DNA of 64,000 nt from Candidatus Omnitrophota bacterium. GTDB taxonomy: Bacteria; Omnitrophota; Gorgyraeia; Gygaellales; Profunditerraquicolaceae. The DNA is taken from positions 4,703 to 68,702 of the forward strand of contig JAQURX010000002.1 in assembly GCA_028715415.1 (NCBI GenBank). Reading direction: 5' to 3'. Every line of letters starts with the position of its first letter. Position 1 is the stretch's first letter. The notes under the pieces are model-generated. The model saw nothing but the letters and a program-made list of their open reading frames with translations, ran no database searches and was not told where the DNA came from. Positions 16,859 to 64,000 of this stretch are shown here, piece after piece. Position numbers and translations under genes: made by a program.

Positions 16859-16887
16859 TGACACTATTAATAACTATATGATATACT
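16859..16887 (+). promoter_or_regulatory. Near-consensus sigma70 promoter TTGACA-N17-TATACT with extended -10 (TGa)
   Basis: TTGACA at 16859-16864, 17-nt spacer, TATACT at 16882-16887, TG at 16879-16880. About 35 nt upstream of the riboswitch. Confidence 0.6.
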
Positions 16888-16924
16888 TTTGATGCTCTTG
16901 GAAATAAGATTGTTTATCTGAAAA

Positions 16925-17005: not shown

Positions 17006-17038
17006 TAAAAAAATTATTTGACAATCCGGCTTTTTTTT
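16991..17038 (+). terminator. Intrinsic terminator acting as the riboswitch expression platform
   Basis: AGCCGG (16991-16996) pairs with CCGGCT (17025-17030) and is followed by TTTTTTTT (17031-17038). The 5' arm is shared with the aptamer P3 stem, so the two structures are mutually exclusive. Confidence 0.6.
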
Positions 17039-17079: not shown

Positions 17080-18078
17080 ATGAAAAACTTACTATCAAAC
17101 AGATTAATAAAAATAATCATAATTTTAATTATGGTTATTTTTTCTTTTAACCAGGTCGCCTTTGCAGCTCGTCATGCAGCTGGCGGAGGCGATATGGCGA
17201 AATTTAATGCCGGCAAATTCGCAGTAGGAACCGGTATTGGTTTAGCTTCTTTTACTGTTGGTAGTGCTTTAGCTGGCGGGATTTCATCTGGTATGCAAGG
17301 TGGCAGTTTTTCCGCAGGTATTGCTGCAACAAAACCATTAGCCTTTTCCACATGGGCAACAAATTATAGTGTAATGACTACAACCGGCCAATTAGGCAGG
17401 GCTGTTGGTAATATGGGCAATTATTATGGGTGGAATCCAAAAGCCACCTTAGCAATCAGCTCTGCTTTGCAGGGCGTTGTTGGCGGAGGGATGAATCCTG
17501 CAGCTTACGGAACCTCAAGCGTTTTAAATGGCATGGCATTAGGTGGGATCAATGGTAGTGTGCAGGGCGCTGTTTTGGCAGCAACAGCAAATAAAAGAGG
17601 TGTTGTACAGCCTTGGGCTGGAGCTGTAGCAGGAATAGCAGGTGGTTTTGCCAGTGGATTTGTTTCCGGAGCGCTTACGCCTACCAATGGAAACTTTTCT
17701 TTCGGAAATAAATTTAATGCGGGGGCTGGATTTAAAGCCGCGGCTACTTCTACAATTCAAAGCCTTCCTTCTCAAGCAATTAGCGTGGGTGTTGGTTACA
17801 TTGCTCAGAATTCAAAAAATCCACAAGATAGATATATGATTCAACAGGCATTTAGCGGTGTTTATCCTATGGTAAATGCGGTAACTAATCCAGTTTCTGT
17901 AACAAACGTGAGGCAGCTTGGCCCCGGCTTTATTAACGTAAGGGCAACACCAAGCGCATACAATTATTCTCAATTCCAGCATGCTAATCCTGTTGGTTCA
18001 GGGTTGCCATCGAATCAGACTCTTAATTATAATTCAAATTCAGGGATTAATAATTTCCCAACAGCTGGTAGTAGATAA
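17080..18078 (+). CDS. Secreted Gly/Ala-rich protein of unknown function
   Basis: 332 aa, signal peptide IKIIIILIMVIFSFNQVAFA, then Gly/Ala/Ser-rich low complexity. Its stop TAA overlaps the ATG of the giant ORF (TAATG). Confidence 0.65.
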   Translation: MKNLLSNRLIKIIIILIMVIFSFNQVAFAARHAAGGGDMAKFNAGKFAVGTGIGLASFTVGSALAGGISSGMQGGSFSAGIAATKPLAFSTWATNYSVMTTTGQLGRAVGNMGNYYGWNPKATLAISSALQGVVGGGMNPAAYGTSSVLNGMALGGINGSVQGAVLAATANKRGVVQPWAGAVAGIAGGFASGFVSGALTPTNGNFSFGNKFNAGAGFKAAATSTIQSLPSQAISVGVGYIAQNSKNPQDRYMIQQAFSGVYPMVNAVTNPVSVTNVRQLGPGFINVRATPSAYNYSQFQHANPVGSGLPSNQTLNYNSNSGINNFPTAGSR

Positions 18079-21000
18079 TGCATAATTTTGCGCAACTAAA
18101 AACAAACATGAGCGAAGACAGAAACACGACAGAAAATAATCTTCAGGCGGAAGCGGTAAAGGAAGAATTCAAATCCAGTTTTAAAGCTTGGATTAGAATT
18201 GTTGCTTTTATCGTCGTGGCTGTGTTTTTGCCTGAGCAGGCTGCCCAAGCTGCAGGGTATGACTGGAGAGTTATTTGGAATAAGCCGGGTTTATCTATGC
18301 CTGCTGTTTTAAATTCAAATGTCGGCCAAGTTAATCAAATTGATATCCCGTTAACCATAAAGAATATTTTAAAAGAAGTTTCCGGTAAACCTTACACTGC
18401 GATAAAGCTCTCTGATAAATTGACCGTTAATTTAGATAAGCCAATTAACCTTTCCCAAGAGAGAATTGAAGAAATTTACAGCTGGCTTAAAGGCAAGCCA
18501 TGCGGATCAAAAGCACTATTAGATTATTTAAAACTTAAAGGTGTGCAGGTCAGCGAGCAGGATATTGCTGTTATGGCTTTGACAGTGGATATTATGAATG
18601 ACGTGGTCAAGCCGGAAGGCAACCCCGCAATTATTTTGAACTCATTATATGCTTTATCTAAAACCGCGGAATTTTATGGACAAAAACTTTACTCTGTTAA
18701 ATTAGCAACTTCAGATTACGGATCATGGAATAAAATAGCGCCTTTTATCGCCCATCTAAACGGCAACCACTTTGTTTTAATAAATAAAATTTCTGGCAAC
18801 AAAATTTACCTTTCCGATAATCACGCAGAAAAAGTTTTATCCACAGATGAATTCAAAAAACAATTTACCGGCTATGCTTTAATCCCTGAAACTAGCAACC
18901 TGAAACCTGAAACTGTTGAATTGTCTGATGCAGAAGCAATGAAGATAATGGGGGCTGCTGCTGCCAATGATAATGTTTGGGGCGGCCAGCTTAACTTGAG
19001 CTTAGATAGCGGTTCTTCGCCTTCGCGTTCTCCTGCACCGACAACTCAGCCTAGTTATACGCCTCAAGCGCCTGCTCAGCTCGGTCTTGGTTATAGCCCT
19101 TCAACACCGTCTTATACACCTACTTATACGCCAAGCTATACTCCAAGCTATACTCCGACGACTCAACCGTCTTATACTCCTGCTGTGCAGACACCAATGC
19201 CTCAAATTACCAATAATTTCTGGACTAATGTGAATAATTTTGCGAATTATACTCCTACGCCAGTTTATACACCACAAGTTAATACTTATACACCTCCGAC
19301 AAATTACGTAACACCTTATACACCGACAACTCAACCAGTGGTTTATACACCCAGCGTTACCCCATCATACAACCTTAATCTTTTTTCTCCAGTTTCCAAT
19401 TATATTCAAAATACTCAACCTGCTTATAACATAACTGTTCCTTTCGCAGCTCCGGCTTATACGCCTCCAGCAAATAATTATGTTACAACTACTCAGCCTG
19501 CTTATACTCCTGTATCTTTTAAACTAGATTTTAATTCTCCGATAGCAGCTCCGTCTTATACATCGCTTACTAATTATGTTGCACCCGTAGCTAAATTTAC
19601 TCCGACAACGCAACCCGCAGCGGTTAGCATGCCTCAGGCAGGCCCGACATTCTGGGATAGCGTGAATAGTTTCTCTAAATATACTCCTCCTGCTGTTCAG
19701 TCTTATTCAGCTCCTCAAATGCCTGTTGCTCAGCTTACTATAGACCCAGTTGCAAATTCTAAACAATGGTCAAATCAGCCTTATGGAAATAATGTAAGTA
19801 TTATGGGGACAAATGCTGCTGGAATGACTACGATTAGCGGAGCAAAGAATTATTCTTCGCATAACAACACAGTAGCTGTTAATTATCCACAGGGAGCTGT
19901 TTTATTTAATGATAGCAAAAGAGGTTTAGGGGATAGGATAGCTATTGGAGTAGGTAGGGTTGCGGCGAGCTATTTAAATATTCCAAAAAACAGTCCAGTT
20001 AGAGATGTTGCGCTTCAGGTTTGGGATAAAGAAACAACTTCTGTCCGGTATTCTTTGGATACAAATCGGGTAACAGGTGGGTTAACAAGCGGCTCTAAAT
20101 TATTTACAGATTTTTCTTTAGCACCGAAAAGCTCAGTTGTCGCAAATACTGTTTCTCCAGTAAATCGTAATGAACACGCCCTGGTTTTAGGAATAAATAC
20201 TCCTAAATCACCTACGGCATTTCAGATTACGCATGTTGACAGGACTCCTGTCAGCCAGCATATGGGGTATTTTCCGCAGGTAAATACTCTACAAGGAAAG
20301 ATTGCTTTTGATCCCTTGGTTTTGGATACAGGAAGATATAATCCTGTAACTCAATCTATCGCTGGCAAGGGCTGGCATACGGATTTGGCAATTAAAAATG
20401 CCCCTAGTAGTAATTTGCAGGTAGTAGTTGGAAAAACTTTTATAGACAAATTACCCGCTTCTTTACCCGGCATCCAGTCGACAATGACTATCCCAAGCGT
20501 TTCTCGTATGGATATTCCTATGGGTTCAGCAGGGTATAACGCAACGCTTAAAGTCGCGGACAACTATAATTTTTCATCCGGCAGTAAGAAATTTAACGGG
20601 GATTTATATGTAGGAATTCCAGATGCCAAAATAGATTCATTTCAGCAATTGGCTTGGGGTACTAAAGCCCCCGGTAAAATCTGGGTGGATATCAATAAAA
20701 TTCCAAATTTAACCAATAATCCATTTAGTAATTCTCCTGCATTTGGCCCGACAGTTACAAGTAAAATGATCGGAGTAGACCTTTCTCAATTTGCGAAGAA
20801 TCAAAATGCCGCGCAAGGCGGAAAGCCCCAGAAATTACAAGGCGGATGGGAATTAGAAGGAAAGTTAAGTTTTGTTAAGATCGCAAATTATAATTCTAAC
20901 TCTCCAAAGATTAAATCACAGACAGATTGGACATTTAATACTAACGGGTTAGGCGCTCGTTATACCAATATAGGTAAAAATTTGGATTCAACGCCTTTGG

Positions 21001-24000
21001 CTCCAAGTTTGGGGATTATGAAGGGAGATACATTGGCTCACTTGCCTTTTGCAAGTACTCATAATCCATCTAGCTCGGGCTTATTCCTGTCAACTTCCCG
21101 TCCAGATGTTCAATTTAGAGATTGGAAGACAAATCATGATTCTACTTGGAACAAACAAACGGTGGTTAATCAGTATAATGCGGGAGTTGAAAGAATAAAT
21201 GCAAGGTTAATTCCCGGTGAAAGAATACAGCCTATAAGCGCAAATAAATACCAGTATTTCCCTCTTTTAAAACCGCAAGTAATAGGTTCTGATATTGTTT
21301 CTGTAAATCATTTTGTCAAACTTCCAATTTCACAAAAGGCTTCTTCTGCTGATGCTGCCAGAATATTTGGCGAAGATTTCTTAAGTACCTACAAAGTAGA
21401 AAAGATAGGGCGTGGTTTACAGTTGACAGGCAAAAATGAATTTAGCGGGCTTTGGCAGATAAATACATTAGGAGTAGATGGTAAGTTAGTAACACGGACA
21501 ATTACTGAAGGTTATGTTTGGACAAATAAAGTCGGGAAAATAGGCGATGTGGATTTAAGCCAAAAAAATAACGTAATAAGCGACGCTCGTTTTAATTTTG
21601 ATCATTTTAAAGGCGATGCAAATGTAATTCCTTTTAAAACAGGATACGGAGTTAACTTAGCTGGCGCTAGAATTGAAAGCGGCATGATTAAAGGGCCCGG
21701 GCTTGCCACTGGGGCATTACCGCAGCGAGTAATAAATAAAGTAGATGGCCTTCTTAAGGCTACCGATATCCACCAGGTATTTCCAAATAATAAGCAAATT
21801 AATCTTACTACAAAAATTAATAGCGATGGAAGCCTCGTAGAAAATTATTTTATAAAAGATAAGAGTTACAGTGCAAGTGTTTTAAGCGGTAAATTCGAAC
21901 AAGATATTACTAATGTGCCGCTAAAAGTAAAATATGATTTGAATAAATTTTCTGCACAGCTTATGCCTAATGGCTCAGTAAAATTAATTACTCCCAACAA
22001 TGCCATTACTTATAGCTATTCTCATCTATTGTCTAATCAGGGTGGTAGTGGTGTAGGCATTAAAAATTTAGGAAAGGGTGTGGAATTAGACTGGATTTCT
22101 CCTGTTTCCAGAGGAGCGGATGTAAATGTTCATTTAGGCAAAGCAGGCATTTTAATCAATCCTCAGGCTAATACGCTGGATTTCTCTCCAACTTATTCCG
22201 AAGGTGCGGTATGGAAGAAGACCGCGGAATTTAATATCGTTAGCAAAGACCAAGCAGTATATGCAGATAAATTAACTGGCATACATTTTTCTTCTGATAC
22301 ATGGTTAGGGCATTTAAAAGGCCAGTCTGGAAGAATAGAAATTGGCGAGCCAGGCAAATTCTCCGGAGATGCAGCTTTTATCAAAGCATTTGCTAATAAT
22401 ACTCCTTATCAATTAACTTCTCAGGATAAAGCAAAATCATTAAATGTTAGCTTAACTCAATTTGATTTGGTAAATAGATTTGATGTAAAAGGCCAAGTTG
22501 CTCCGGATTGGCACTTGTCTTATATGAAAGGCAACGGCATTGTTAATGGCAACAAAATTGATATATTTGATTTAGGGGTAACTAAATTTAGTAATGGCAA
22601 TGAAATGCCCACCTTAGGCGTTAAAGCTGTTAAATCAGGCAATTTATCTATTCCGGAATTTTTCAACAAAGCCGGCGGAGGTTCTTCTGCAGAAATAACA
22701 TACAGTAGCTTTAGCCCGAAATTAAATCTCTTAAAGGTTCAGAATACGACAGAATTAATTGCTAAACAAAATGGCCAGGATATTTATCGCAGAACAAATA
22801 TTGCAAGCGGAACAACGGGCATTTTACTTAACCCAGCAGAAATCAACAAACAGCAGACTTATTTTGACGGCCAGGGAAATTTTGTAGTTGGCTCTGCTGA
22901 TATCAGCTCTTTGTCTTTAAGCAATCGTGCTGAGTGGCAAAATGTTGGGAAAGCTTCTTTAATAAATGGAAAGATTTATGCGAATGACGAAAAGCTCGTT
23001 GCTTTTTCTACTAATTTAAATGGAGATAAAGTAATCCGTGCATCTTTAGGAATTAAAGCCGGAAAAGAATCAGGAGATGTATTAAAAATAGGTAAAAATG
23101 ATTTTCAATTAACTAGTTATCTTCTATCTTCTCCTGAAAAAATTAAACAATACCCGGGAATGAATTTATCTCCTTTGCAAAGAAGCACATTAGGCATGCA
23201 AGAGATAGTTCCTCAATTGTTTTCCGGTGTTGATTCTTATGATCCTCTTGCTGGTTTTTACTCTTCATTAATGCCAAGCTCAAAGAATTTGTCTGAAATT
23301 AATCAAATCATGGGCAGCAATCTTTTACAGAATATTTACAAAGATTGGCCTTCAATTGCAAACACCGGCATAGAATATACTATTTCATCTTGGGCTACTT
23401 ATCAGGAAAGAGATGCCTTGGGGAACATGGTTTTTCCTAACAAGGATGTTATCTTTGGAAAAGGCATTCAGGATAATCATTCTATCAATTGGAAAATTGG
23501 CCAGGTTGATATAAATGGGGAGATAGGTCCTCTTGCTGAAGGAACAAAAACTCTTCTCGGGAATGATTTAATAACCAAGGGGTCCTCTCCTTTGGTTATG
23601 CAAAAGGCAGCTACAGAAATAAATATGAAAGATGGTAAGCCGGTAAATGAAGCTATCGGGCTTTTAGGCTGGCAAGGATTGCCTGTGATTTCTCAGGGGC
23701 TTGTTAATGCAACGGTTAACGCCGGAGGAAATTTATCAACAGATGCTAATCAAAATGGAACAATTCTTAATTCCGAGCATACCTACAATATTAGTGACCG
23801 CATAGGTGGTGTTTTATTAAATGATAATGCTACTCTTACGAATTTAGGTATTGATAATAATGGTAAGGTTAATTTTAACCCTGTAACCCAAGCGGGAAGA
23901 TTAGGGTATTCAAACGTAAAAACATCAGAAATTGTTAATAACAAAGATCTTTCCAGAGTGGCTGATATCAAATGGAAAGATGGTTCGCTTGCAATGCCAT

Positions 24001-27000
24001 GGAATTTAAGTGTTAATGTAAATAATGAAGGAAAACCGACGCATTTTGAAGTTGGATATTTAGGCGGGGCTAATAGCAAATCCGTTAAATTCGACGAGAA
24101 AGGTAATTTAATGAATGGGGCTGGGCAAATTACTTCTACCCAGTATTTATTATCATTAAGGCCTGGTCTGGAATATGGGCCTGATGCCAAGATGCTCACG
24201 CCTGTTTTGTATAGATACAGCGAATTGAAAGATGGTTCTTGGCAGATTCCAAAAGGGAGCACATATTTTGGAGAGAATTTAAAATCGATGATTGGCAAGG
24301 TTATTTCTATTCCAGAAGGCAGTGCAGCACGGAGAATTTTTACTGCGCAAGGCGAAGAATTCAAATCAGGTTATTGGGCTGCTGATCAGAATGGGAAGGT
24401 GTGGGCTTTGAGCCCAACCGCAATGCGTTATGGTATTTTGAATGTTGATGGGTCTTTGCAATATTTAAATAGCGAAGGCCAATCTTTTAAGGAAAGCGAT
24501 ATTCCTGAGGAGATAAGGCCGAATTTAACCTTAGCAAAAGAAATAGCTTTACAGAAAAAGAGCATTGCTGAAAATTCGGAATTTGTGCATAACCAGCTTA
24601 ATGATTTGCATAATGGATTCGCTTATAAATATTTTAGAGCCGGAGAAGGCACAGAAAAAGCATTGAATAATGAGCTTGCAGCAATTCACGATAAGAAGCT
24701 TCTTATCAAAGAAGCTGAAGCGTTCTTGAATGTTGATAATATTGATGGCGCGAAAAATACATTTGATATGTTGGTTGGCGGAGATGCTTTAGCAAAAGTT
24801 GTTGTAGAGGCTCTTCCTTATGCCAAGCACGACGAAAGATTAGTTTTAGATGCATATATGCGTAATGCTGGTGTTAAAGATGATAAAGATGTTGCAGGTA
24901 TTGCAAGAATGGTAAGAGAGGATCCTAAAGCGCGCATGTTTGCTCATAAACTCCCGCAATGGATCAGAGAAAGTAATGATGAATTAAGAGATTGGAAACA
25001 GGGAAATGATATTGTGCGCGATAATCCGGACAGCCCTTGGACAGTATGGGCAGAATCTTTTTATCGCGAAGCTGCAAGTAAAATTTTACCCGTAGATTAT
25101 GTTTTAAATAATCCGGATGCTTCAATGCCTCGCCAAGGTTGGGAAACTTTCAAGAACGTCGGCTCAACTGAATTAGAAGGTTTGGGTATGATGTCTAAGG
25201 GGGGTTGGCAAGGAGTAAGGTCAGTAGTTACAGAACTAGGTGTTTTAGGAGATTCTTTAGTAAGATGGGATTCTTCAGAATTAAAAGAGGGTTCTTTGCT
25301 AGCTTGGGAAACTTTAAAGGGAGGTTATAACCCTTACGACGATGCTTACAACAAAGGCGGCGCATGGAAATCCTTATATTATATGGGGAATGGTTCAGAA
25401 ATTACTCTTGAGATTTTATTAGGCAGAGGCGTTTTGCGTGGGCTAAAACTTGGAGAATACGGAGCTGCCGGAGAAAAGTTAGGACAAGTTTTATCATTCG
25501 GCGGAAAAGTTTCACCTTATGCGACAGCTTCTTTATTGACTGGTGCTGCTGCCGCTGGCGGAACTGCAGTTTATAATGCAGCAGAAGGCAAACCAGTAAC
25601 AGAGGATTTAGCTAAAAATTCACTTCAGGGTTTGCTCGCACCATATCTTATTCATCCTACTACCAAAAGCATTGCTGCTAAAGTAGCGGCTTATGGCCCA
25701 TCTATATTGGGTTTGATGGCTACTCTTGGCGGCACTCTCGATCTAGCTCTTTCTTCCGATAAGAAGTTGGAACGCTATTATAGCGTTGGTGAAAACAAAA
25801 CTTCCGTAAAAGATTCTTCTACAACCTTCTCGTTTGAAAGGTATTTTATTTTTTCTTTTGCAGGAGAACTTTCTGCAGCAGCCGGATCGGTTGTAAGAAA
25901 TTTTGCCCTTTCTTTGGCCGGCAAACTTTCTGCAACAACTGGATATATATCTGGAGATAAAGCAGGCGCGGAAGCAATGGATACGATTACAAAAGGTTTT
26001 GAGGCTTCATATCAAAAGACTTTAGGAAACTTTGTAGAAGTAACCAGAAAATTATTTGGAGATATCCCAGCTATCATTCCAGAGGTGTTACGTACGTTGC
26101 CCGGATTCGCGGGTTTCCCACATACTGTGCTACGTGATATGGCTTATTTTGGCAGAGAAAACGCCGATTTAGCTAATCAGTTTGGCGGAGATCAGATGGG
26201 TGGTTGGATTGCAGGAATTTTCCGCGGCTCAGCAAAAGGTGCTTGGGGTATGTTTAGTTATGTTACTTCTATAGCTGATGCTTCATTGCATGTATTTGAA
26301 GGCGGCGGGGACACTGGAAAGTTCTATCAGGGATTTATTGGCGATAAAATAAAATCAGTTTTAGGGCAAGAGGTTTCTATTTTTGTAGATCCTGAAGGAA
26401 CTGCTAATATTGTAGCTCAACGAGCCTATGAAGGATTTTCATATGTTATTGCTAATTTATTGCTTATGCCTGGAGCGCAACATATAGGTAAAGGCGAGAA
26501 TATTATGGCAGCTGAGAAAACTGCACCTAAGAGCACAGCGGGACAGGTTGCAGTGAGCATTCTTGATGGCTATAACGCAGCAACACGCGCTATACTTCTT
26601 CCTACGGATATGTTAATAGGGATTGGTAAAGCTCCATTAATAGTTGGCAAAGAGACTATTAAAGGAGAGATCTTAGGCAAAGATACCGATACTTCAATAT
26701 ATTCTGGTTTGGTTAAAGCAGGCAAAGAAATAGAAAATAAAATTCCCGGGTTAAGACAGGTTAATACTGAGGCTCCAAAGAAGGCCAATGAATCCCGACC
26801 TACTTTTAAAGACGGCGAAGTTGGCGGCAGACAAGGATCGAAAGTAAGTGCTGCAGAATTAAATTCCGCTGCAAAGGATGCAAGATATGTAGGAACATAT
26901 AATGACGTAGAGGTTTGGTTAAAACCAGGTAATGAAGTAGTCCCTGGACAAGCCGGTGCCGGCGGATTAACTATTGATGGCAAACAAGTAGTCCTTATCG

Positions 27001-30000
27001 CAGAAAATACTTGGAGAAATGCAGAAGGCGGTAACGCAGATGCAAAGTGGACTGTGCATCATGAGTTAATAGAAGCAGCTGGCCGCGGTTCATTCGCAGA
27101 GGGGCCTTTGGCTCCATCTAAAGAAAAAGTTTCTGATGCGGTGCATTGGGAAGGTGAATTAGGTAAAGCGTATGAAGATAATGTAAAGAAAAATTGGCAG
27201 ATGCCGAGATTTGAAGAAGCAACTCCAATCTATTCTAGGGTTGCTACTCCAATGCAAAGAGCAATGGCTTTATTTAATAATATAGCAGGTAGAGCTCCGA
27301 CGCAGAAAGAAATGGTTACAATCATTAAGAACTCACCAATAAAAACAGACTTTATTGATGCAGCAAGGAATGTAGCTAAGGAAACTAAAGTTAAAATAGG
27401 TGACGAATTCTCTTTTGATAATGCTTGGGCAGGGAAATTGTTTAGGGTGAAAGCAAAAGCTACTGAAGGAGAAGGCTGGATCACAGAATATTATTCTGAA
27501 GGGGATAATGCATGGAAACATTTTGCGTTTAAGAAGTTTAGCAGCAGAGAAGTGGTGTTAGGGCAAGAAAAGTTAGCCGCTCAAAAGTCATTAACTGAAG
27601 TGCAACAGGCAAATTTAGATTTTGAAAGATTAACAGGGCACAATCCATCATACAACGAAACAAAGGCAATTGTCACAGAAGTGGTAAACAGGGGAGGAAG
27701 GACAACTTATAGAGATGTTGCTATGGAAAGAGCGGAAATCATAAAAGCCAATCAACGTCTACAGCCCACAGGCACCTTACCTATTATTAATGAAGGCCCT
27801 CTGCAGTTTGCCGAAGGAAGGTTTGGGTTTAATGAGGGAGATGCTAAAGTTGGTAAGGTAGAGGAAAAAGACTTAGCTACACGTGTTGCCGAAGCAACTG
27901 GTGGTAAAAAGATTGAGGAGTTAAATCTTAGAGAAAGAGTGTTTCTTGCTTGGAGCGATGTGCGTTCTTCTCTTCCAAAGGATCAAGCGCAGGCAGATTT
28001 ATTCTGGAGAATAGATTCTACTAATCAAGAGGTAGTATCAAGATTACAAAATAGAACTCCAGGAAAAGATGTCATTCCTCCTACATTTGAAATCCAAGGT
28101 GGTATGTCTTCAGGTAAAGATTCAGGTGCATTGGTATACGACAGTTTACGTCTAAGTGAATTAGGTGATCCAGCAATAGGTAGAGAGGTAGTACCATTAA
28201 GAACTCATTCACAAGCCCAAGAAACAGCAGCTGAGGTTAGAAGAATAATTACTCATCCTTTAATTGGGCTTAAAGAAGGAGACGTTGCAGTTGTTTCTGC
28301 GCACGATCCTAAATCAATAAAGGCTGCAGAAAAAGCACAATTTGTATTCTCTGCAAATGAGGATTTACAGCTTCTTTCTGCAACTCCAGAAGGAAGGAAA
28401 TCAATTGAATCTTTTATGGGGTCTAAAGATGCCCGTCGTCATTATTGGAATCCAGAGGCTGAAGATACTCCAGGCCTTATGGTAGGGACTAAGGCAGCTA
28501 GGAATCTCTCCGCTAAAGAAGGGAATGTCGGGGGCGAGACTCAAAATGTGCTAACCGAGAGACTGGGTTCAGAAACTGCAACAAGAAATGGTGAGAAAAT
28601 TATTTCAAAAGATACTGATCATATAGTGAGTTTAAATGAACCATTAATAGAATCTATTATGCCCGTTTTGAAAGCGGATAGCTTAGAGGAGGCAGTAAAA
28701 ACTGAAGATGGGGCTTTAAGAATGTCGGCAATGGCAGCGAATGCTAAAGCACGCCACGATAAACTTGGTGTTGATGTTGATAGGTTAGAAAATGGGCAGA
28801 CATCTCCGTTGGATGGTCTTTCTGGTGTTAGGCATAGGGTAAGGCCGCATGATCCAATGGATGCAGTTGCTCAAGCCCATATTACAAGAGCAAAAATGGG
28901 AGAGATAACAGGAGAGACTCCTGATTTGCCTGCTAATATTGAATCCCAAGCAGAAACTACCAAGGTTTTAGATGAACAAATGATAAGGATATTAAGGCCA
29001 AGCTCTGTTCGTTTTGCAACAGGCTCTCTTACTTCTGAGGCAGCAAAAAGAAATCAGGTGGTCTATGGTGCAGAATTGCCGCCAGGTGATAGTGTTGCTC
29101 CTTTAGATTTAGCCAGCCTTAAGGTAACCCAAGGGGAACATGATACCGGAGTTAAAAATTTTGAAACTATAATGCAAAAACTGGCTCAAGAAAAAGTCAG
29201 CGGGATTATAACTATTGCAGCTAGAGGAGAAGATTTGCCTGCTTTTGTAACACGAGCAACTGAATTAGCTAAGAATACACAGCAAAGAGTTATATTAGTT
29301 GATGCTGCCGGTGAAAGCAGTTTTGTCACAGGATCTAAAGAACGCATTGCAAGTGATAAAGATGTTAATACTCAGTTAGTTACTTCAGATAACATTGTAG
29401 TTATAGTAGCTCATGGATCTGCAAAGAGTAAGAGTTATTATTTTGGCCAGGATTCTGAAGGAAAACCTCTTGGTAGAGGTTTTGTTTTGGCTGATGGAAA
29501 AGCTTATGCAGAAATTGTCGCACAAGGCACCAAACGTCCAAGGACAGCAGCTACTCTTAATGAAAATGGCGAATTAGTGAAAGATTGGGGAAAACAGCAA
29601 GAGGTATCTGATACTGTTGAAGTTGTAGCTTATGGCCCTACGCGTGAAGGTGCTTCCACCCATCAGGAGAGTTGGTTGAGGAACCAGAGAGACGGAGAAT
29701 TAAGAGCTAATCATCGTAAAGTTATAGATAATTCAATTAGAATGCCGCATGATTCTTTGGAATATTTAGCTCAACTAGCTCCGGAAGCAAGTAAAGAAAT
29801 AGCTACAAGATTAGAGAGAAGAAGACAAGAAGATACGATTTACAAGAATACTGAATTACGAGGCGATGCTGAAAGTGGAGAAACTTCAGCTCTTAGGACA
29901 AGAGATAGGTCAAATATCTGGCTTAGGGAGCAGATGAAGAGTTTGGAATCTTTTGTTAGGGCGGATAATACACAAGCAAGGGATTTTATGAAAGAAATAC

Positions 30001-33000
30001 TCGGTGAAGAATTAAGCCGTGGTCCAGTGCCTTTAGGGTATGCACGTACTCCCGCTGAATTGATTGAAGCTTTAAAAAGATTTGATTCTGCTGATTATCC
30101 AGCTCGCACTCCTCACTACGTAGAAGCAGGTGTTGCTTCAGCTGATGCTGCTGCAGGAGCAAGAAAAGATTTAGGGTTAAAAGGACATGAACCTATAATA
30201 GCAGAAAGATTATTAGCAGTTAGAGGCATTGCTCCAGCAAATGCTCAATGGTTGAAGGATAATGGCTATGCTGATCCTCAAAGCGGCGTTTTATATATTG
30301 ATTCACAATTCTTACCTATAATTAATCAGTTAGTTAATTCTACACAAGCTACAAGACAGGCGTTAAATAGTGGTTTATCCACTCTTAATATTACAGCTGC
30401 TACTTTGCCTGATTCGGAAACTGTTTCAAACCAGCAGGCCTTTGATACACTAAAATCAATTATTGATAACGTTGTGCCGGCAGCTAATACAAGGCAAGGT
30501 TTTAATTCTCTCATGACTTTAGGCCAGCTCGTTAAACCTTTTGAGAGTACTGGCGATAGCGTCTCGATTACTCCTGGAGCATTCAAGAAAGCCCAGCAGA
30601 GCTCGGATTATTTAGCAATTGTAGATTTGGTTTTAAACCTGGTAAGAGCGAGCCATCCTGAAAAAGCAAAAGCCATAGATAACTTGCTTAATGATAAAGT
30701 TAGAAGCGCATATAAGAAAATGCAGATGGCAAGAACTGATGCAGAACGCAAAGCCGCTGCCAAAGCTTTAACTAAAGCTTTGCCTACCCGTACTGCTATT
30801 TATGATGCAATGACGCCTTTTGGCACAGCTGGCACAACTGATGATGAGTGGAAAGCTCCGGAAAAACTTCGTTCAATGGAATTCGTGCCTTTCTTAATTC
30901 CTATGTCTCCAGAAGAAACACGCAATTTAATTGCTGTTGATGATGCCTTATTAGAAGATGATTTGCTCCCAGCATCAGTAGCTACAAAGGTTCCTTTAAT
31001 TGATACAGTAGCTGTTGCCCAAGGCCAGATGAATTTCTCGGGTTTGATTTCCAGATGGGGCGGCAGAAGCGAAGTAGCTAAAGCTGCCAGAATGCTTAGT
31101 AATTTAGAGAATGCTTCCGCAAGGTTATCCGCAGCTAGGAGAATACTTAGCAAACAGGCGCAATCCGGAGAACAACCAGATAAGAAATTACAAAGCGCAT
31201 TAAAGAGTTTATCAAAGCAGATTAAGAGATTGCAAAGATTAGGGCTTGATCCTACTCAATATACCAGTAATGATAATCTAACTGTAATTGCACAAAGAAT
31301 TGTTGGCGAGGATAAGGCTAAAACAGATAAATTAATGGAAAAATTAATTCTTCTTTCTATGGCAGGAAGAAGAGATTTGCTTGAGAAGCAGGTTAATAAA
31401 CATAAAGAATCTTTGGATCCGGCTATCGCAGCGTTGAATGCATTAATTGAGGAAGAAAGGCCGATTGCTGAAGGCGGAGAGAATTTAACAAAGAAAGCCG
31501 AAGAAGTCCGCCAGCAAAGAGAACAGAGGCGTCAACAGCAGATTGCTCAGGTTGAAGAAGATGCAGCTAAAGCAGCCCAAGAGGGAAAAACAGTAGAACC
31601 AACCGAAATCCCAGAAACAGATAGCGTTGAAACGATTGCTGCAGAATTACAAAGCCGCGCTAAAATAACAATTGATTTAGCTAAAGAAAAGTTGGCTAAA
31701 CTTGAAAAAGAAAAGGCTGATGCTGCTGCAGTAACTAATGAAACTCCTCTTGCACAGCAATATGCTGCTACAGAAGCTTATCTTCCTGAAGCATTAGAGT
31801 TGTCCATTAGAAGCGAAGCTTACCAGAAATTTGCTAAAGATAAAGCTGCTGAAGAAAATCAGCCTGCAACAACTGAATTCTCCGCAGAAGACGTGGCTAA
31901 TCGCCTTAACGAAATTTCGAATCAAGATTCCGGCGAACATATGAATCTTATGGCGAAGAAATATACTTATAACACCATCACTCCTGACGAAGATGTCCGA
32001 TTGAATGAAATTGAGAAGAATCGTAGGCAGCAGGCAGAGAGTTTACTCCAGGGCCTTAGTATTGAACAATTGGAAGCAGTTGTAAGGCTTAATGTTGAGC
32101 AGGATGAACGTTTAAATAATGGAGAAAAGCCAGCTTCGTTATTTGGTAATGGAGCTCCAGATTATGCCGCGCAAGAGTTAATAAGGAAATTAAAAGCTAG
32201 GGATGAAGCCAAGTCCGATGCACAATCGAAACAAGGTAATCAACCAGTGGCTCAAGAGCCAAGTAATCAAAGCTTCTTTAAGCGCGCATTGTATTATAAA
32301 GTCACCCTGCCTTTATCAGAAAAATTATTGGGCTCCCCGGTAAGCGTGCATTGGAGTGTTGCTGCTTTAGTAGCGTTCTTGGGGATTAAATTTGGAGGTG
32401 TTACAGCTGGTTTGGCGGCTGCAACGCCTATTATGATTTCAGTATTCTTACATGAAGCTGGGCATGCATGGGCTGCATTTAAGAAAGGAATGAAAACCGA
32501 TAATATTACTCTATTTGGTTTTGGTGGATCAACTAATTTTGATAAAGATAGATATGAAGCTATGTCTCAGAAAGATAAGAAATTTGTCGCTTTAGCTGGC
32601 CCGGCGATGAATTTTGTTTTGGCTGGTGGAGCAGCTATGTTGAATGCTTTAGGCGTTATTGATTCACATTCGGCAAATTATTTTGCTAACATGAATTTAT
32701 TCTTAGGGGCATTTAACTTGATTCCTTTCTGGCGGATGGATGGGGCAATTATATTCAGAAATATTGGTAGAGCTACTAGTAATGCCTTTACACCGCTTGG
32801 CTTGATGATTTATGCTGCTGGGAAGCTTATGTTTGGTAATGGCGGATTAGACAATGCAGGTGTTTCTGGCGCTGGGCAGAATAGTAATGGTGGCGCTAAA
32901 GAAAAGCCTGAACAACAGCCGATGGGTCAACCTCTGCCTTTCACAAATATTCCAACACCAAATGTTAATAATTTGAAGGTTCCTGCAAGTAATGGCTTAA

Positions 33001-51000: not shown

Positions 51001-54000
51001 CAATTTGGCAGGCACAAAACAAGAATATAGATACAACTTCGCTTAAGGAAATTCTTGGAACAAAAGTAAAAGAGCACAAGGCTACTAAATTCTCAGCTGA
51101 AGAATTAAATGCAGTAAGAAATGTTTTTGAAAAGAAAGCTATTAAGGTAGCGCCCAAAGAGGTTGCGCCTCAAAAAGTTACACCCAAAAAGGTTGTTCCT
51201 AAAATAGCGGAATCAACAGTTACTGTTGATTGGGAGACGCAGAGGAAGGCACAGATGGAAGAATTTAAACGTGCACTTCAACTTGCTCCTGAACCGAAAT
51301 TTGTCCAGGCAAAGAGCGAAGCAGTCTCGGCTTCGGCAACTCTTGATTTAGGCATGATAACTGGCCAGGACACTCGCTCTGCTGAATGGTCTGCATGGTG
51401 GAAAGATTTTACTAATCCAGTTGATTTTTCTTCATTCCGCTTTGTTAATTTAAAAATTCGCGGTGAAGGCAATGTTTACTTCCAATTAGTAGATAAAAAT
51501 ACTCAGGATGGCGCACCGGGAGGAATGAATCGCAAGGCTTATAAATTAAATAGTGAAATTTCTGTAATAAGTGTGCCGCTAAGTGAATTTACAGGAATAG
51601 ATTTGACTCAAATAAGAAGGCTTGTAATCAATGGTGGGCCGGATGTATTTGGTGATAAGATTAATTCTGAGCAAGCAAAGGTATATGTCGAGAATATCTG
51701 GGCTTCTCAAGTAGAAGGTGAAATTAAAGAAGCGGCAGAAGAACAAGTTGCTGCTTATCCTCAAGCTTTAACTCCAACATTTGTACAGGTGGCACATACT
51801 GACGGTGGTTTTAAATTAGAAGTAACAGGGCAAGCTGCCGGTAAACAGTGGTCTGCTATCTGGTCAGATTTCCCAGCTATGGATTTTCGTAATTTTGAGA
51901 GCCTTAAGTTGATAGTCAGAGGGCAAGGGAATTTCACAGTGCAGTTATTAACAAAAGATGCTGATGAAAACCAGCCACAAGGAATGCATGCAAAGACTTT
52001 TGCTTTAAGCCAAGAGCAGAAAGAAATTTCCATACCTTTAACTGGATTCGGTGTTGATTTAAGTGCGATAAGAAGAGTGATTATACATCGCGGTGAAGAA
52101 GTTTATGGCCAGGTTCTAAACAAAGACGGAAAAGCAGAAATTGTTGTTGATGGATTGTATGTATCAACACAAAATGGTGAGCGTAAGATTTTGACTCCTA
52201 ATGGGCCAGAATTTGGTTTGGTAAAAGCAGTTAATTATATGCCAAATCCTGTAGGCAAGAGCCCCGATGCAGGGAATCTTGTGGTGCATGCTGATTGGTT
52301 AATCAGTGATGCTAATAAAAATGGTATGCCTGATGGACCGTTTGATTCATGGGTGGATTTGAATAGGAATAATCGTCAGGATAGTAACGAAAAGGCAGTA
52401 GGAGATTTCTGGCTCATGCGTCAGATGAACGCTAATGTAGTGAAAGTTTATCAGGTAGAGTGGGATAATCTTGCTCAGAGAAAACAAGTGCTAAGAACCG
52501 CGTTTGATAAGAACGACTTAATGTTCATTATGGGTGATTATTTAGGAGCGTATGGCCAGCACGCAGGTATTAAGTGGCCGGAGATAACAGACTATAGTAA
52601 TGACCAGCAGCGACAGGCTATGACTGATTTTGTCTTAAAGATGGTTAAAGGATATAAAGATGAGCCATATGTATTAATGTGGATGCTTGGTAATGAAAAT
52701 AACTTTAAATTTACTAACACTAACGCTGGGCAGAACATGAAAGTTTTCTTAAAGTTTGTTAATGAGGTGGCACTTAAAATCAAGGAAATTGATGCAAGGC
52801 ATCCTGTTAGTATTTGCCTTGGTGGAGATGATGCTAATCTTGTAGAAATTCTTAAATTAATGAAAGAATATTGCCCTGCAGTTGATATCGTAGGCCTTAA
52901 TTCTTATAAAAATGGTAACAACTTTGGCCCTATTTGGCAGCAGGTTAAAGATAATTGCGATAAACCGGTTTTCATTACTGAGTTTGGCTGTCCTGCTTAT
53001 ATTCCGGGTGAGAGTGTTCAAGTTGCTGAAAAAGCACAGGATCAATATTTGCAATCCTGCTGGAATGATATAGTTGCAAACAGCTTTGGAAAAGGAAAAG
53101 TTGGTAATGCATTGGGTGGAGCGGACTTTGAAATACTGGATGAATGGTGGAAAGTTCAGCCTCATCATAATGGTGGAGCTAACGCTAGCGCAGACAGACA
53201 GGATGCAATTAGTGTTGCTCCCGGTCCATTCCCTGGTAAAGGATTCTATGAGGAATACTTTGGTTTAATGTCACAAGGTGACGGCAGCAACAGCCCGTTT
53301 GCAAGACAGCTTCGACCAGCTTATTTCATGTTTAAAAAGGCCTGGAGTAATGAAGTCACAGATTATAATCGCGCAAGAAATACAGCTAATCCTCCGACAA
53401 AAGAAGAAGTAACCGCTGCTTTAATATCCGGTCAACAGCGCAATGAATTCAGCGATGTTGCCGCGGATGCTCGTGTTCAGTCAGCGGTCAAGGAAGTAGC
53501 AAGATTCTTCTCTGAAACAGCTCGTGAAGCAGAAGCTCAGCGCCTGAAATTAATGGTTAAGCAAGGTTTGTTACGTGCCGGGCCAGCATTTGATAAATTT
53601 ACTGCTACGTATCAACCCCCGCAGCTTTTTGTTAACAAATCTTTATTAAGTTATCCTCAAAAACTTATCTCTCAGATAAAATCACTTTTTGGAATTGCTC
53701 CTACATCTCAAACAACCAGCGCGGCTAAATCATCTGCATTAGAAATTAAGCCGGGTAGTTTGGCTTATACTATAAAAGTAAGTGAAAGAAATCTCCAGAT
53801 TAATACTATGGCCGCAAAGAATTCGTTTGAAGATGCGCTAAGAGGCAAGAATCAATCTATTGCATTAAAAACAGCCCCAGAGAATAAGCTTACTCTTTCT
53901 TTAAATGGGATGAATGAAGCGGTGAAGTTTGATATCGCTGGGTATAAAGATGTAAGAATTGCTGCTCACGCCGTAATTGAGAATTTATTTAAAGACGGGT

Positions 54001-60000: not shown

Positions 60001-63000
60001 AGCCTCTTAGTGTTGGTAGATCGGTTAGACAGGGTATCTCTAATAATAGGTGGGAACCTTTAGTTGGCGGGGCAAGTGTTACTCCAGTTAAAATGCTGCT
60101 TAAAAATTTGGTTAACCAAGATACTAATGAAAACATCTTCTTTTTTGAAATTACTGATATTAACCGAACTATTGATATAGGATTTAATCCTTCAGATCCA
60201 GTTTCTACCTATAAGAATATTTATGCTAAATTTAATGAGCTTTTGGCGAAGGAATATATTAAGGAACGTTATATTATAGGTAAAACTGGTACAGGAAGAA
60301 TGGTTACTCGCTTGATAGATTTCAAACTTAATTCGGCTGGAGATATTATTAGCGATCCACGTTTGATTGTTTATTTTCTATATACTCCAGAAATCTTGAG
60401 CGCCACAGAAGCAGGCCCGCTTCACTTTGGATATTCTCGAGAAAGCTATATTTATCCATATAATAAACAAGAAGGCCTCGATGTTATGTCGTATGCAAAT
60501 AAAGAATGGAGTAACAGTAATTGGGTCGCACATATTTTTAATCGTCAGTTCGCTACCGACTTACAAACAAAAGAGATATTAATACATTATGATGTGCAAG
60601 ATCGTAGAGAAGGGTATACATTTATTGGCAAGGCTCTTTCAACCTATGGGATGCTTAAATATGATGAGTATTTAGGGCAGTCTGGGGAGCCCGAAACAAT
60701 GAGAATTTATTATGGCCTTCGTGAGATACCAACAAAAGCCGTTGGTTTTGATATGAAAGGGAATAACCCGGAATTATGGAGACAATACCGTAATAGCGTA
60801 GTGGATGAAAACGGGCATACCTATTTGATAGTTGATGAAATCGATCCTATTAGGAATGCTCATCCATATATGTATGCTGCAGAAAAATTTGTTTATCCTG
60901 AACTTAATTGGTTTGTTTTGCGGGATGGAATGTTCTTTGCTCGCGCCGATAAATGGAATTATTCTACGCAAAAATATAAAGCAACGCGTGATTTTTCTGA
61001 AGATGTATCAAATAGCGGATTGTTTAGGATTCTTGGTAATCAAAAAGCTGTCAAAGAATCAAAGAAAGTAATTGAAAAAGCGTTGAAAGAAAATAGATTT
61101 AATCCTGTTCCGGATGTTTCTCAAGATGAAATTAAGAACGCAATGGAAATGCGCAAAGCGCGTTCCATTGATGGTTATGTGCCAGTAATGTTAATTATCG
61201 CAGGAATTATTGGCTGGGTTGTTTTGGTATGGCAATTGTTGAAATTTGCTGTTTCTAAACCAAATATTAATTCTGCAAATAAGGAAGAGCTTGAAGGAGT
61301 TTTTTCTCCGCATGATGCAGGGAATATCCTTCTAGCCCGCAAAGAGCGCGTAGCAATTGGCAATGTAACAGAATTGCCAGAACTGCGCGATACTACAGTA
61401 GATAAAATAAGAAACAAGATTAGGTTTACTGAAACAGTAGGAGGGATTACTCTTGAAGAAATAAGTAGTCTTAATGATTTCAAATATGAGAATATAGAAG
61501 GTACAATTCTTTCTGATAGCGTGGAGTATGTTAACGATCTTATTGAGAAAGGTTTCATTTCTAAAGAAGAAGTCGAACAGATTGTACGCGAATTGGCTAA
61601 AGGGTTATCTGTTGGAGTGTTGCCATTGAGTTTGGTAAAGGCTAAATTACTAAGTAGAATCTTTAGGTGTGCTTACTGGGATGGTAGTTACCTTCTTAAA
61701 GATAGTGTGAGAAAAACTTTAACTAAAGCAATAAAAGACCTGTTTACAAGAATAGACATGCCAGTCTCTAAGGTTCTCCCAGATCAGTTTATCAATGAAA
61801 TTATCCAGGAAATATCTGTCCATCGTGTACCTGAGTATGTATATGATTGCGATACGGGTAAATATGAAGGTGGCAAGAAACTTTCTTTAGGCACTGGTTT
61901 GTGGGTGTTTGATCCCAAAGCAGATTATCAAGTTGTTTCTTTAGAGGACTTTGTAATTAAGTATAAGGTAATTTATACATTAGTGCCATTTTTTAGCACC
62001 CATACCCCGGCAGTAAATTGGTTTACTCGCCAGGTAAAAGAGATGCTTATTAATAAACAAGATAAGGATATAAAGGCTTTTATCAATAACCATCGGAAAT
62101 TTTGGTATCAAGCGTTAAAGGATCAGTTGGATAATAAGTGGGAACCTATGCGTGACGACCGCGGTAAAGGGCCTGCTTATGAGAATGAAAAGACCAGAGA
62201 GTGGAAATATTTAATGATTTGGTCTGAATTCAATGATTTATTCCGTTATTTGCTGGAAGTGGACGATTACAATAAGCCATTACCTTGCCTTAAAGATGGA
62301 ACATTCTTCGATCTTAAACAAAAGATAATGACCGATGTTTTTTCTAAGATTGCAGCTGGTGATACACAGTTTACAAATGATGAGCTGACCTCAGATTTTC
62401 TCCAGAAGATAGTGGATGTTTATTTCAAGCCATTTAATCTTTACGTAACCGGTAAATTAAGAATTCCTTATTATGATAGGAAAGTATACAAAGCCAATAA
62501 TACGGGTGATGTTAAGACCGGAATATGGGCAAAGATTAAGCCTTATATTCCGTTTGTAAGGAGATGGAGAAGCCCTGAACGAGGAGAGATCGGCCTTTGG
62601 GCCTTTGTATTATTTAAATTGTTAGGAGATAAAAGATTTTGGAGTAAGGATATCAAAGATAAAAATAGAAATGCCGGGAAAAAATCTAGTTTTGTATCGA
62701 GTATCCCTGTATTTATCCGTGTAGCAGGATATGCCACTATAGCTATTTTAGCTGCAGTTTACATTCCCGAATATCATCTTTTAGGATTCAATGTTCCATT
62801 CTGGTTTAATTCTGTGGCAGCAGTAGGTTTAATAATGACTATACGTTTATTCCTGAACGATACTACTTTAAAAGCCCGTCGCCAAGCGTTGATCTGGGGT
62901 GCAATTAGCTTAGTAACCGGCATGTTTATTACATATATCATAGGATACGTAGCAACGCATTGGATGTTTATGCCTATACCTTTTGAACTTAGTTTTTCAC

Positions 63001-64000: not shown

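Follow-up and report, generated by a model that had tools for sequence, protein, structure and literature searches.

We analysed a 64,000-nucleotide (nt) stretch of DNA from a Candidatus Omnitrophota bacterium (contig JAQURX010000002.1 of assembly GCA_028715415.1), subsequently designated the window, with respect to a giant gene that starts with the ATG at position 18078 and is still open where the window ends, so that only its 5' part is available. The product begins with a short head, in which a putative export signal is followed by a C39-type peptidase domain and a motif resembling a double-glycine leader, and continues into a long body. On the same strand, the gene is preceded by a Tad/Flp-type operon, a predicted cyclic di-GMP (c-di-GMP) riboswitch and an open reading frame (ORF) encoding 332 amino acids (aa). 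The features of the leader and of the head are given below; aa numbers refer to the giant protein.

16858..16887, + strand: sigma-70-like promoter match, TTGACA-18-TATACT with extended TG (11 of 12 consensus positions; no more than a pattern match)
16917..17006, + strand: c-di-GMP-I class riboswitch aptamer (full-model match to Rfam RF03167, 67.7 bits, gathering score 59, E 7e-14)
16991..17038, + strand: predicted intrinsic-terminator hairpin (AGCCGGGUUG...CAAUCCGGCU) followed by U8 (sequence; minimum-free-energy fold with z = -4.4)
17080..18078, + strand: 332-aa Gly/Ala-rich ORF with an N-terminal signal-like segment, its stop overlapping the giant ATG (ORF list)
18078..64000, + strand: 5' part of the giant ORF, 15,307 codons or more (translation, codon statistics)
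18174..18251, + strand: putative Sec-type signal or anchor with a hydrophobic core at aa 33-51, then PEQxAQA at aa 52-58 (hydropathy, head alignment A1)
18435..18902, + strand: domain of the Peptidase C39 (double-glycine peptidase) family, about aa 120-275 (Pfam PF03412; 45-47 bits, gathering score 22)
18921..18956, + strand: double-glycine-leader-like motif LSDAEAMKIMGA, aa 282-293 (consensus match, conservation)

The giant reading frame

The original prediction had described a single ORF of more than 45.9 kb, running off the window and starting at an ATG that overlaps the stop of the preceding gene. Both statements hold. Translation of the + strand from the ATG at 18078-18080 to position 63998 yields 15,307 codons and no stop. 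The first in-frame stop 5' of this ATG is a TAG at 18072-18074, and the ATG at 18078 is therefore the first possible start; it shares one base with the TAA of the upstream ORF (18076-18078), the junction reading TAATG. A six-frame stop map of the same 45.9 kb showed 551-1,752 stops in each of the other five frames, in which the longest open run is 272 codons, and base composition alone would predict about 1,090 stops per 15,307 codons (log10 P about -491). The antisense and off-frame ORFs inside the gene, which had been dismissed as short and low-complexity, reach up to 257-272 aa and are indeed low-complexity shadows of the giant frame. Codon usage of the giant frame correlates with that of the upstream Tad genes with r = 0.91, as compared to 0.36 and 0.14 for the two off-frames, while each 3-kb slice correlates with the remaining ORF with r = 0.81-0.95. 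The G+C content at third codon positions (GC3) is 0.26-0.33 in all fifteen 3-kb windows of the ORF. The long frame is confirmed as a genuine coding frame, and the sequence statistics give no hint of a chimera or of an assembly error caused by repeats. An alternative genetic code or stop reassignment need not be invoked, since the frame contains no stop of any kind and the neighbouring gene ends in a standard TAA.

A DNA repeat search found no long repeats, the sole family being a degenerate 92-nt repeat at 38080-38723. Its three copies encode a very acidic, helix-prone stretch (about aa 6668-6882), and the net charge over aa 6601-6900 is -37. At the protein level, three internal similarities were detected within the giant ORF, all of them short, and the protein is essentially non-repetitive. 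The sole clear internal duplication relates two segments with predicted transmembrane (TM) character, aa 8104-8196 and 9117-9208 (42387-42665 and 45426-45701), at 49% identity. A repeat-built giant of the kind represented by titin or the RCC1 giants is ruled out by this near-absence of DNA and protein repeats.

As the ORF leaves the window, 15,307 aa is a lower bound. Indeed, protein P0035, the relative most similar to the final 1,200 aa, runs at least 654 aa past the equivalent of the window end without reaching a stop. P0035 is the best match to this region (47% identity, colinear) and fills a 6,174-bp contig end to end. When aa 14108-15307 were compared with 1.84 billion representative proteins in a HMMER scan, 26 proteins were matched, many of which are long fragments of 2,000-7,500 aa. 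Pfam scans of P0035 and of the relatives P0036 and P0039 revealed no domain.

Riboswitch leader and conserved head

When the whole window was searched with Rfam, a single RNA reached its gathering score, namely the aptamer at 16917-17006. The promoter-like match lies about 30 nt 5' of it, and the 332-aa ORF begins 74 nt after its end. The 3' strand of the aptamer (AGCCGGGUUGCC...) is at the same time the 5' arm of the putative terminator and can alternatively pair with 17014-17031, aptamer and terminator overlapping by 16 nt. A ligand-stabilised aptamer would take up this arm and thereby prevent termination, so that the expression platform is predicted to act as an ON switch.

The association of aptamer and giant gene is widespread. 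Among ten related loci tested with Rfam, nine carry a gathering-level c-di-GMP-I or c-di-GMP-I-GGC match just 5' of the giant ORF. From the aptamers of these loci we built a covariance model, R1, which detected a same-strand aptamer in 67 of the 74 related loci having more than 400 nt of upstream sequence. The distance between the aptamer end and the first in-frame ATG has a median of 169 nt and mostly amounts to 160-185 nt; it exceeds 1 kb in three cases only, the window and loci L013 and L073. In the window and in L013, an extra gene, the 332-aa ORF, is inserted between aptamer and giant gene, while in L073, for which a homologue of the 332-aa protein was not detected, the two are separated by 1.7 kb. 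Across 80 aptamers, 92.5% of the cells in the consensus helices are paired and 12 pairs show double changes, a result equalled in 0 of 500 shuffles, although a paired outcome is favoured by the fitting of the alignment to the model. Helix 3 (P1a) stands out in that all six of its pairs exhibit double or compensatory changes, with 99.6% of cells paired. Neither the shuffles nor a slide control came near the observed result. Using a simple heuristic, a terminator overlapping the aptamer was found in 46 of 73 related leaders.

As to the ligand, the Rfam consensuses of the 'GGC' variant and of the canonical c-di-GMP-I class differ at one position of the pocket strand, which reads CGCGAAGCC in the former and CGCAAAGCC in the latter. 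All ten aligned aptamers carry the canonical A in CGCAAAGCC, and c-di-GMP is therefore the likely ligand, as judged by this comparison.

The 332-aa protein has no Pfam match. Homologues with 30-48% identity are encoded in ten related loci, mostly 5' of the riboswitch and not 3' of it. This also applies to the closest relatives L018, L039 and L059, in which the homologue lies upstream of the riboswitch, and the order seen in the window recurs in L013 only. Inside the 332-aa ORF, at 18004-18033 and 45 nt before the giant ATG, there is a further promoter-like match (TTGCCA-18-TATAAT, 11 of 12).

To assess conservation of the head, we used alignment A1, with which one genome per GTDB species was scanned; 87 loci were returned and 80 were kept. 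The heads encoded at these 80 loci are 47-65% identical to that of the window. According to their titles, the loci derive mostly from Omnitrophota or Omnitrophica, with a minority labelled 'uncultured Planctomycetales', one Margulisiibacteriota and two 'bacterium'. The head-bearing ORF is still open at the end of the locus in 73 of the 80 cases, and in 36 of the 40 loci that provide at least 3,000 codons of downstream DNA. In a separate search, the first 1,500 aa matched 34 proteins, most of them marked 'partial', with 46-57% identity and a similarity that hardly extends beyond the first ~300 residues; where a source is named, it is Candidatus Omnitrophota/Omnitrophica with two exceptions. Judged by best hits and not by phylogenomics, the gene belongs to Omnitrophota.

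Alignment A1 contains 65 invariant columns, which include Cys142 (within GKPCG), His231 (within HFVL) and residues of the PEQxAQA motif that follows the hydrophobic core. The N-terminal hydrophobic segment is probably a signal peptide. AlphaFold2, supplied with a 12-sequence alignment of the head, predicted a confident C39 core with a predicted local distance difference test (pLDDT) score of 74-92 over residues 120-295. The block 281-290, which holds the motif LSDAEAMKIMGA, scored 92 and is modelled with a short helix at 284-289. The best PDB matches to this model in Foldseek were LahT150 (6mpz; TM-score 0.72, root-mean-square deviation (rmsd) 2.9 Å), followed by the peptidase domains of PCAT1 and ComA, all with TM-scores of 0.72-0.75. 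LahT150 is a double-glycine protease that was crystallised with its leader peptide.

The canonical consensus of C39 substrates is LSXXELXXIXGG, with cleavage after GG, GA or GS. The motif LSDAEAMKIMGA shares with it the residues L, S, E, I and G (-12, -11, -8, -4 and -2, respectively), and carries Ala at -1, corresponding to the allowed GA variant. It is the single strict double-glycine-type match in 15,307 aa, where 0.04 would be expected, and for this reason C39 is not predicted to dice the body; a polyprotein cut at many double-glycine sites was rejected on the same grounds. Of 68 related loci that could be evaluated, 63 encode a motif of this type and four more have near-variants (e.g. IADNEAMKVMGA), which amounts to about 67 of 68. 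In the remaining locus, L029, an FSG motif located earlier had served as anchor of the scan, so that the tail in question was overlooked. Sequence conservation among the homologues stops directly after the motif. These features suggest that C39 cuts after Gly292-Ala293, probably in cis, and thereby separates the body from the signal or anchor at the N-terminus.

Beyond residue 300, about 15 loci retain patches of 25-40% identity. Aa 940-2100 matched a single protein (P0002), and aa 7401-8900 yielded no match at 1e-5 in an index of 5.8 billion proteins. In terms of sequence comparison, the giant protein is a conserved head on a hypervariable body.

Protein body and neighbouring genes

The body was searched with Pfam in 4,000-aa chunks and in 1,000-aa windows at E<=0.5, complemented by PDB sequence searches. 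TM-like segments were called as 19-aa windows with a mean Kyte-Doolittle value of at least 1.8, a crude measure, which missed TM segments even within the M50 domain.

18975..19757, + strand: Pro/Thr/Tyr-rich low-complexity linker (SYTPSYTP...), about aa 300-560 (translation, composition)
19758..32357, + strand: presumed exported ectodomain of about 4,200 aa, no strong TM-like segment and no Pfam domain (hydropathy, Pfam)
32322..32765, + strand: Peptidase M50 (site-2 protease) membrane domain, aa 4749-4896 (Pfam 53-66 bits against 27; PDB matches MJ0392 and SpoIVFB)
32358..47834, + strand: zone rich in TM-like segments, aa 4761-9919 (25 strongly hydrophobic 19-mers by hydropathy)
40635..40940, + strand: SleB-like cell-wall hydrolase (Hydrolase_2), aa 7520-7621 (Pfam 49 bits against a gathering score of 27)
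41355..41540, + strand: Peptidase M15 of the peptidoglycan peptidase type, aa 7760-7821 (Pfam 40-41 bits, gathering score 23)
42924..43268, + strand: P-loop kinase-like domain, aa 8283-8397 (AAA_18 26 bits, below the gathering score of 29.4; Walker A GASGVGKT)
48030..48239, + strand: glutaredoxin-fold domain with CGMC, aa 9985-10054 (Pfam 52 bits; PDB matches to glutaredoxins)
51402..53000, + strand: CIA30-like beta-sandwich (aa 11109-11171), then a clan GH-A TIM-barrel glycosidase (aa 11436-11641) (Pfam, PDB)
61185..63065, + strand: second cluster of TM-like segments (four), aa 14370-14996 (hydropathy)

The TM helices, linkers and enzyme motifs that had been read from the translation were thus also seen by hydropathy, composition, Pfam and motif scans, which delineated eight domain regions and 30 strongly hydrophobic 19-mers. 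One of the latter is located at aa 33-51, 25 fall into aa 4761-9919 and four into aa 14370-14996, leaving aa 52-4760 and 9920-14369 as stretches free of TM-like segments by hydropathy. Recognisable domains, by Pfam and PDB sequence search, cover about 950 residues or ~6% of the 15,307 aa, and cysteine accounts for only 0.2% of the residues. Motifs typical of the respective enzymes are intact in M50 (HEAGH at 4792 and NLIPFWRMDG, i.e. of the HExxH and NxxPxxxxDG type), in M15 (SQHVDGIAAD), in the P-loop domain (GASGVGKT), in the glutaredoxin (CGMC) and in the glycosidase (LGNENN, ITEFG). The glycosidase further exhibits a PDB sequence match to GH158 (E 8e-14) and scores 24-26 bits with Glyco_hydro_2_C (gathering score 21), and the preceding module scores 24.1 bits with CIA30 (gathering score 24). 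The P-loop domain also gave weak, below-threshold matches to AAA_33 and Zeta_toxin, which is intriguing for a domain located near wall hydrolases; Zeta_toxin is a UDP-N-acetylglucosamine kinase that poisons wall synthesis.

The presumed ectodomain shares patchy 25-40% identity with about 15 related loci. A PDB sequence search with aa 1-4000 gave no match, and AlphaFold2 run on aa 940-2100 with a two-sequence alignment returned no confident fold (pLDDT 25.7). For the giant class, an antiparallel beta-helix tubule has been reported (West-Roberts 2023, bioRxiv 10.1101/2023.11.21.568195). Pfam at E<=0.5 found no SecA_DEAD, HEAT, TPR, glycosyltransferase, methyltransferase, NUDIX or GGDEF domain and no dockerin or TSP3 in aa 1-15,307, and Pfam scans gave no ATP-binding cassette (ABC) transporter domain in the giant ORF or in the 18 kb upstream. 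The features of a dockerin-type giant, namely many dockerin/EF-hand and TSP3 repeats and a long, repetitive N-terminal part free of TM segments, are not seen in the available part, which has no dockerin or TSP3 match and essentially no internal repeats.

The DNA upstream of the riboswitch is largely occupied by Tad-type genes:

49..16481, + strand: Tad/Flp-type pilus or secretion operon (Pfam; same-strand upstream genes in most related loci)
49-924, + strand: RcpC/CpaB (Pfam)
941-2602, + strand: secretin with a C-terminal TonB_C domain (Pfam)
2606-4759, + strand: TadZ-TadA fusion ATPase (Pfam)
4793-5134, + strand: DUF192 (Pfam)
7324..7450, + strand: second c-di-GMP-I-like aptamer, 5' of the pilin genes starting at 7535 (Rfam 29.9 bits, below the gathering score of 35)
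7535-11834, 12625-12912 and 15993-16481, + strand: about eight to nine small pilin-like ORFs (weak Class_IIIsignal, Flp or TadE matches)
8529-9380, + strand: TadB (Pfam)
9394-10287, + strand: TadC (Pfam)
12924-15071, + strand: TadG-like protein (Pfam)

All ORFs of any size in 1-18,078 are on the + strand, and the operon is followed by an intergenic gap of 600 nt (16482-17079). The fusion of a Tad secretin (RcpA/CpaC-like) to a C-terminal TonB_C domain is unusual, and the 717-aa ORF at 2606-4759 joins a TadZ/CpaE-like ATPase of the ParA/MinD fold to a TadA/CpaF-like (T2SSE) ATPase. The small pilin-like proteins have N-termini of the (R/K)(G/A)QST(L/A/I)EY type (QSTLEY-type), which are class III signal-like, and this set of pilin and pseudopilin genes is unusually large. 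The Tad proteins of the window are up to 68-73% identical to those of related loci. TadB, TadC and small pilin-like ORFs are found upstream and on the same strand in most loci having enough DNA, and the gene order of the window down to the 332-aa ORF is common to five loci (L013, L018, L039, L059 and L069). Over the entire window (1-64000), the credible genes are all encoded by the + strand, and with a single exception the 2-kb windows have a positive GC skew, in agreement with the strand-biased replichores reported for complete Omnitrophota genomes.

The second aptamer candidate, at 7324-7450, has an E value of 4e-4 in a 401-nt search and scores 28.2 bits with R1, and it remains below the Rfam threshold. 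A second, more upstream R1 match is also present in L013 (884-972), L007 (79-200), L021 (5788-5935) and L056 (1426-1581); the one in L013 reaches 46 bits with R1 and 39.4 bits with the Rfam c-di-GMP-I model, which is above the gathering score. The pilus genes and the giant gene may respond to the same signal. Riboswitches for c-di-GMP that control pili and large surface adhesins are known in other phyla.

Proposed role, rival explanations and known classes

With a probability of roughly 0.8, we consider the window to contain the initial part (15,307 codons or more) of a single, genuine giant gene of an uncultured Omnitrophota bacterium that is regulated, self-processed and directed against a host or prey cell as follows. 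The gene, its family, the operon context, aptamer and terminator, the layout of the head and the intact motifs are shown by the analyses above, and the course of events is inferred. High levels of c-di-GMP, the usual attachment signal, would lead to a bound aptamer that sequesters the 5' arm of the terminator, permitting read-through into the 332-aa gene and the giant gene. The product would be sent to the Sec pathway by its N-terminal signal, whereupon C39 would cleave after Gly292-Ala293 and free the body from the N-terminal anchor. Kept in the envelope by its own TM segments, the body would display the ectodomain of roughly 4,400 aa, the wall hydrolases and the glycosidase, and, together with the co-encoded Tad apparatus, would attach to a host or prey cell and digest the envelope of the latter. 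A role in attachment and envelope digestion has been proposed for this class of proteins (West-Roberts 2023).

Three rival explanations were weighed, which largely agree with this proposal on what the gene is and differ on what it does. According to one of them, the frame is real, but the product is a polyprotein that is cut into many enzymes, or several smaller proteins arise from internal starts. The two built-in proteases, C39 and M50, the heterogeneous domain content and the promoter-like site near the giant start are compatible with this view; M50 and proteases not known to us could act on the body, and cleavage into smaller polypeptides has been raised as a possibility (West-Roberts 2023). 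However, the sole double-glycine-type site is located at residue 293, and the absence of any stop over 45.9 kb argues that ribosomes must cross the whole frame; this explanation is considered unlikely. It is likewise rather unlikely that the protein is a housekeeping scaffold of envelope or pilus, such as a surface layer or a Tad-pilus accessory, with hydrolases that remodel the cell's own wall and do not serve as a weapon. Such a function would fit the location of the gene, which is co-oriented with the Tad assembly genes and directly downstream of them, as well as the apparent presence of c-di-GMP aptamers in front of both the pilin genes and the giant gene. Moreover, SleB-like and M15 hydrolases often remodel the own wall locally when envelope-spanning machines are inserted. 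On the other hand, the extreme divergence of the body among relatives looks more like the outcome of an arms race or of evolving host specificity, the GH-A glycosidase and the module resembling a carbohydrate-binding module (CBM) have no obvious role in the own wall, and the published context ties the class to episymbiosis or predation.

That the gene is an assembly artefact, i.e. a chimera or the product of collapsed or mis-joined contigs or genes, appears hardly credible. The assembly is probably metagenomic, no exact copy of the window end (50-mers) was found in public genome and metagenome contigs and no protein identical to the 332-aa ORF product is on record, so that the window stands without an independent copy, and assembly errors have been reported for such genes, although these usually break them (West-Roberts 2023). 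Yet, any join would have to keep 45.9 kb free of stops where about 1,090 are expected, and to produce codon usage, GC content and GC3 that are uniform over fifteen 3-kb windows and the same as in the upstream operon, with no long repeats available to seed it. In addition, the 5' junction comprising Tad genes, riboswitch and C39 head is syntenic with dozens of independent genomes, and at the other end the last 1,200 aa are colinear at 47% identity with an independent contig.

Several observations weigh against the preferred proposal of a c-di-GMP-controlled, self-processing and host- or prey-directed protein. Regarding control, the best-scoring Rfam model is the 'GGC' variant and not the canonical one, and the subclass was judged from two Rfam consensus lines; the 332-aa gene stands between riboswitch and giant ATG in the window, and the promoter-like site at 18004-18033 could give rise to riboswitch-independent transcription. 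Regarding processing, the canonical oxyanion Gln six residues before the C39 cysteine is a Trp here, the Pfam match leaves out the first third of the C39 model, and classical C39 domains act in the cytoplasm, whereas the present one follows a signal sequence. Glutaredoxins and P-loop kinases are normally cytoplasmic, whereas the hydrolases should face the outside, and the topology is derived from crude hydropathy. Finally, domains are recognised in about 950 residues only, from which the function of a protein otherwise (~94%) devoid of annotation has been deduced, and the window covers the 5' part of the gene, so that the regions where the class carries a SecA-like domain (C-terminal) and PilZ genes (downstream) lie beyond it.

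What has been published on giant genes allows placing the present one. West-Roberts 2023 describe predicted Omnitrophota proteins of up to 85,804 aa that possess numerous TM regions and are mostly unannotatable, referring to proteins of >=10,000 aa as 'large' and to those of >=30,000 aa as 'giant'. Their N-terminal regions include some in which C39 near a signal peptide is the sole recognisable domain, and cell-wall-lytic and glycoside-hydrolase domains occur. A conserved upstream secretion locus of more than 10 genes contains gspD/E/F-like genes, rcpC and small class III signal genes, while solute-binding or transporter genes are also found downstream of class members, and a divergent SecA_DEAD or SecA preprotein-binding domain is present in 'most', often near the C-terminus. 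Nielsen & Lui 2026 (bioRxiv 10.64898/2026.06.07.730766) extended the class to 147,155 aa and catalogued 5,761 proteins of >=10,000 aa, 80% of which are sequence singletons; the group with PF03412 (C39) is one of the two largest architecture clusters, and 13 of the 14 largest giants are flanked by type II secretion system (T2SS) or Tad genes. With its at least 15,307 codons the gene of the window is 'large' in the sense of West-Roberts 2023, and it combines C39 near a signal peptide with numerous TM segments and a T2SS/Tad-like locus directly upstream. The assignment to a kind of giant gene reported in Omnitrophota, made originally from the letters alone, is thus borne out by the Omnitrophota origin of the head homologues, the upstream locus and the N-terminal C39. 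The accompanying statement that such genes are extremely rare stands for bacteria at large, but not within Omnitrophota, where they are common and have been catalogued in thousands.

The gene is a divergent new addition to an already known class of giant surface-protein genes from the tiny, host-dependent Omnitrophota, known here from its 5' part, and taken alone it changes little. By contrast, two features shared by dozens of genomes at the species level, namely the leader with its riboswitch and the double-glycine motif in cis, are undescribed as far as the searchable literature shows: West-Roberts 2023 mention neither a riboswitch nor a double-glycine motif, Nielsen & Lui 2026 mention neither riboswitches nor c-di-GMP, and a full-text literature search combining riboswitch with Omnitrophota/Omnitrophica returned only unrelated papers. 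C39-mediated cleavage had been raised as a possibility, with the cleavage points stated to be unknown, and PilZ genes downstream as well as GGDEF domains inside many giants had been reported (West-Roberts 2023); the latter two observations fit c-di-GMP control of giant genes. We give even odds to the broader idea that the C39-headed giants form an undescribed unit, in which a c-di-GMP-I ON switch ~170 nt from the start is combined with a self-removing head that releases a hypervariable body. If this is true, a megadalton protein would be made only when c-di-GMP is high, and regulation and maturation of the largest known bacterial proteins would become testable with a 130-nt RNA and a 300-aa head. 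The three Omnitrophota genomes curated by West-Roberts 2023 comprise roughly 1.6-2.1 Mb, and the riboswitch leader would provide a concrete answer to the question when a genome of this size makes a protein of more than 15,000 residues. C39 and the cis double-glycine motif would represent the first specific, testable cleavage site for the class, and aptamer and head together are practical markers of where giant genes truly begin when metagenomes are fragmented.

Compared to known systems, the protein shares with the giants of Chlorobium chlorochromatii (36,805 aa and about 25,000 aa; summarised in West-Roberts 2023) the very large ORF and an episymbiotic context with presumed partner contact, but these consist largely of repeats and adhesin- or toxin-type domains, whereas the window ORF is non-repetitive, and a sequence relationship was not detected. 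The 'Archaeovorin' type, with its type protein from Velamenicoccus archaeovorus LiM, has in common with the window protein the phylum, the N-terminal C39 and signal, many TM segments, a mosaic, non-repetitive multi-enzyme body that is mostly unannotatable, and the upstream Tad/T2SS-like locus. From the Archaeovorin-type domain set, a glycoside hydrolase and peptidases are present within the available 15,307 aa; SecA_DEAD, glycosyltransferase, methyltransferase, NUDIX, HEAT, TPR and GGDEF domains were not detected in this part, and the middle and distal parts of the window protein have almost no detectable relatives. The PF03412 cluster or 'multi-enzyme' class of Nielsen & Lui 2026 is similar in C39, in the many distinct and unrepeated Pfam families, in the TM segments and signal, and in flanks with Tad, T2SS and TonB-domain genes; that catalogue was built on complete genomes, while the window ORF is partial.

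For the head, the C39 domains of peptidase-containing ABC transporters (PCAT/AMS; LahT150 6mpz, PCAT1 4ry2, ComA peptidase domain 3k8u) are the appropriate reference. They resemble it in fold (TM-score 0.72-0.75, rmsd about 3 Å) and in the catalytic Cys and His, and a substrate-like LSxxE(A)xxIxG(A) motif is present in the window protein. Unlike these enzymes, the C39 domain of the window is not fused to an ABC transporter, follows a signal sequence and has Trp in place of the oxyanion Gln; its putative leader resides in cis, directly C-terminal to the protease, and the 'cargo' is not a small peptide but more than 15,000 aa long. The RNA leader of the gene resembles the c-di-GMP-I (GEMM-I) riboswitches RF01051/RF03167 (Rfam CL00126) in its full-length match, the covarying P1a and P2 helices, the CGCAAAGCC pocket strand and the terminator-type platform, and differs from them in the controlled gene, which is here a giant of at least 46 kb, an association kept in 67 of 74 Omnitrophota species loci.

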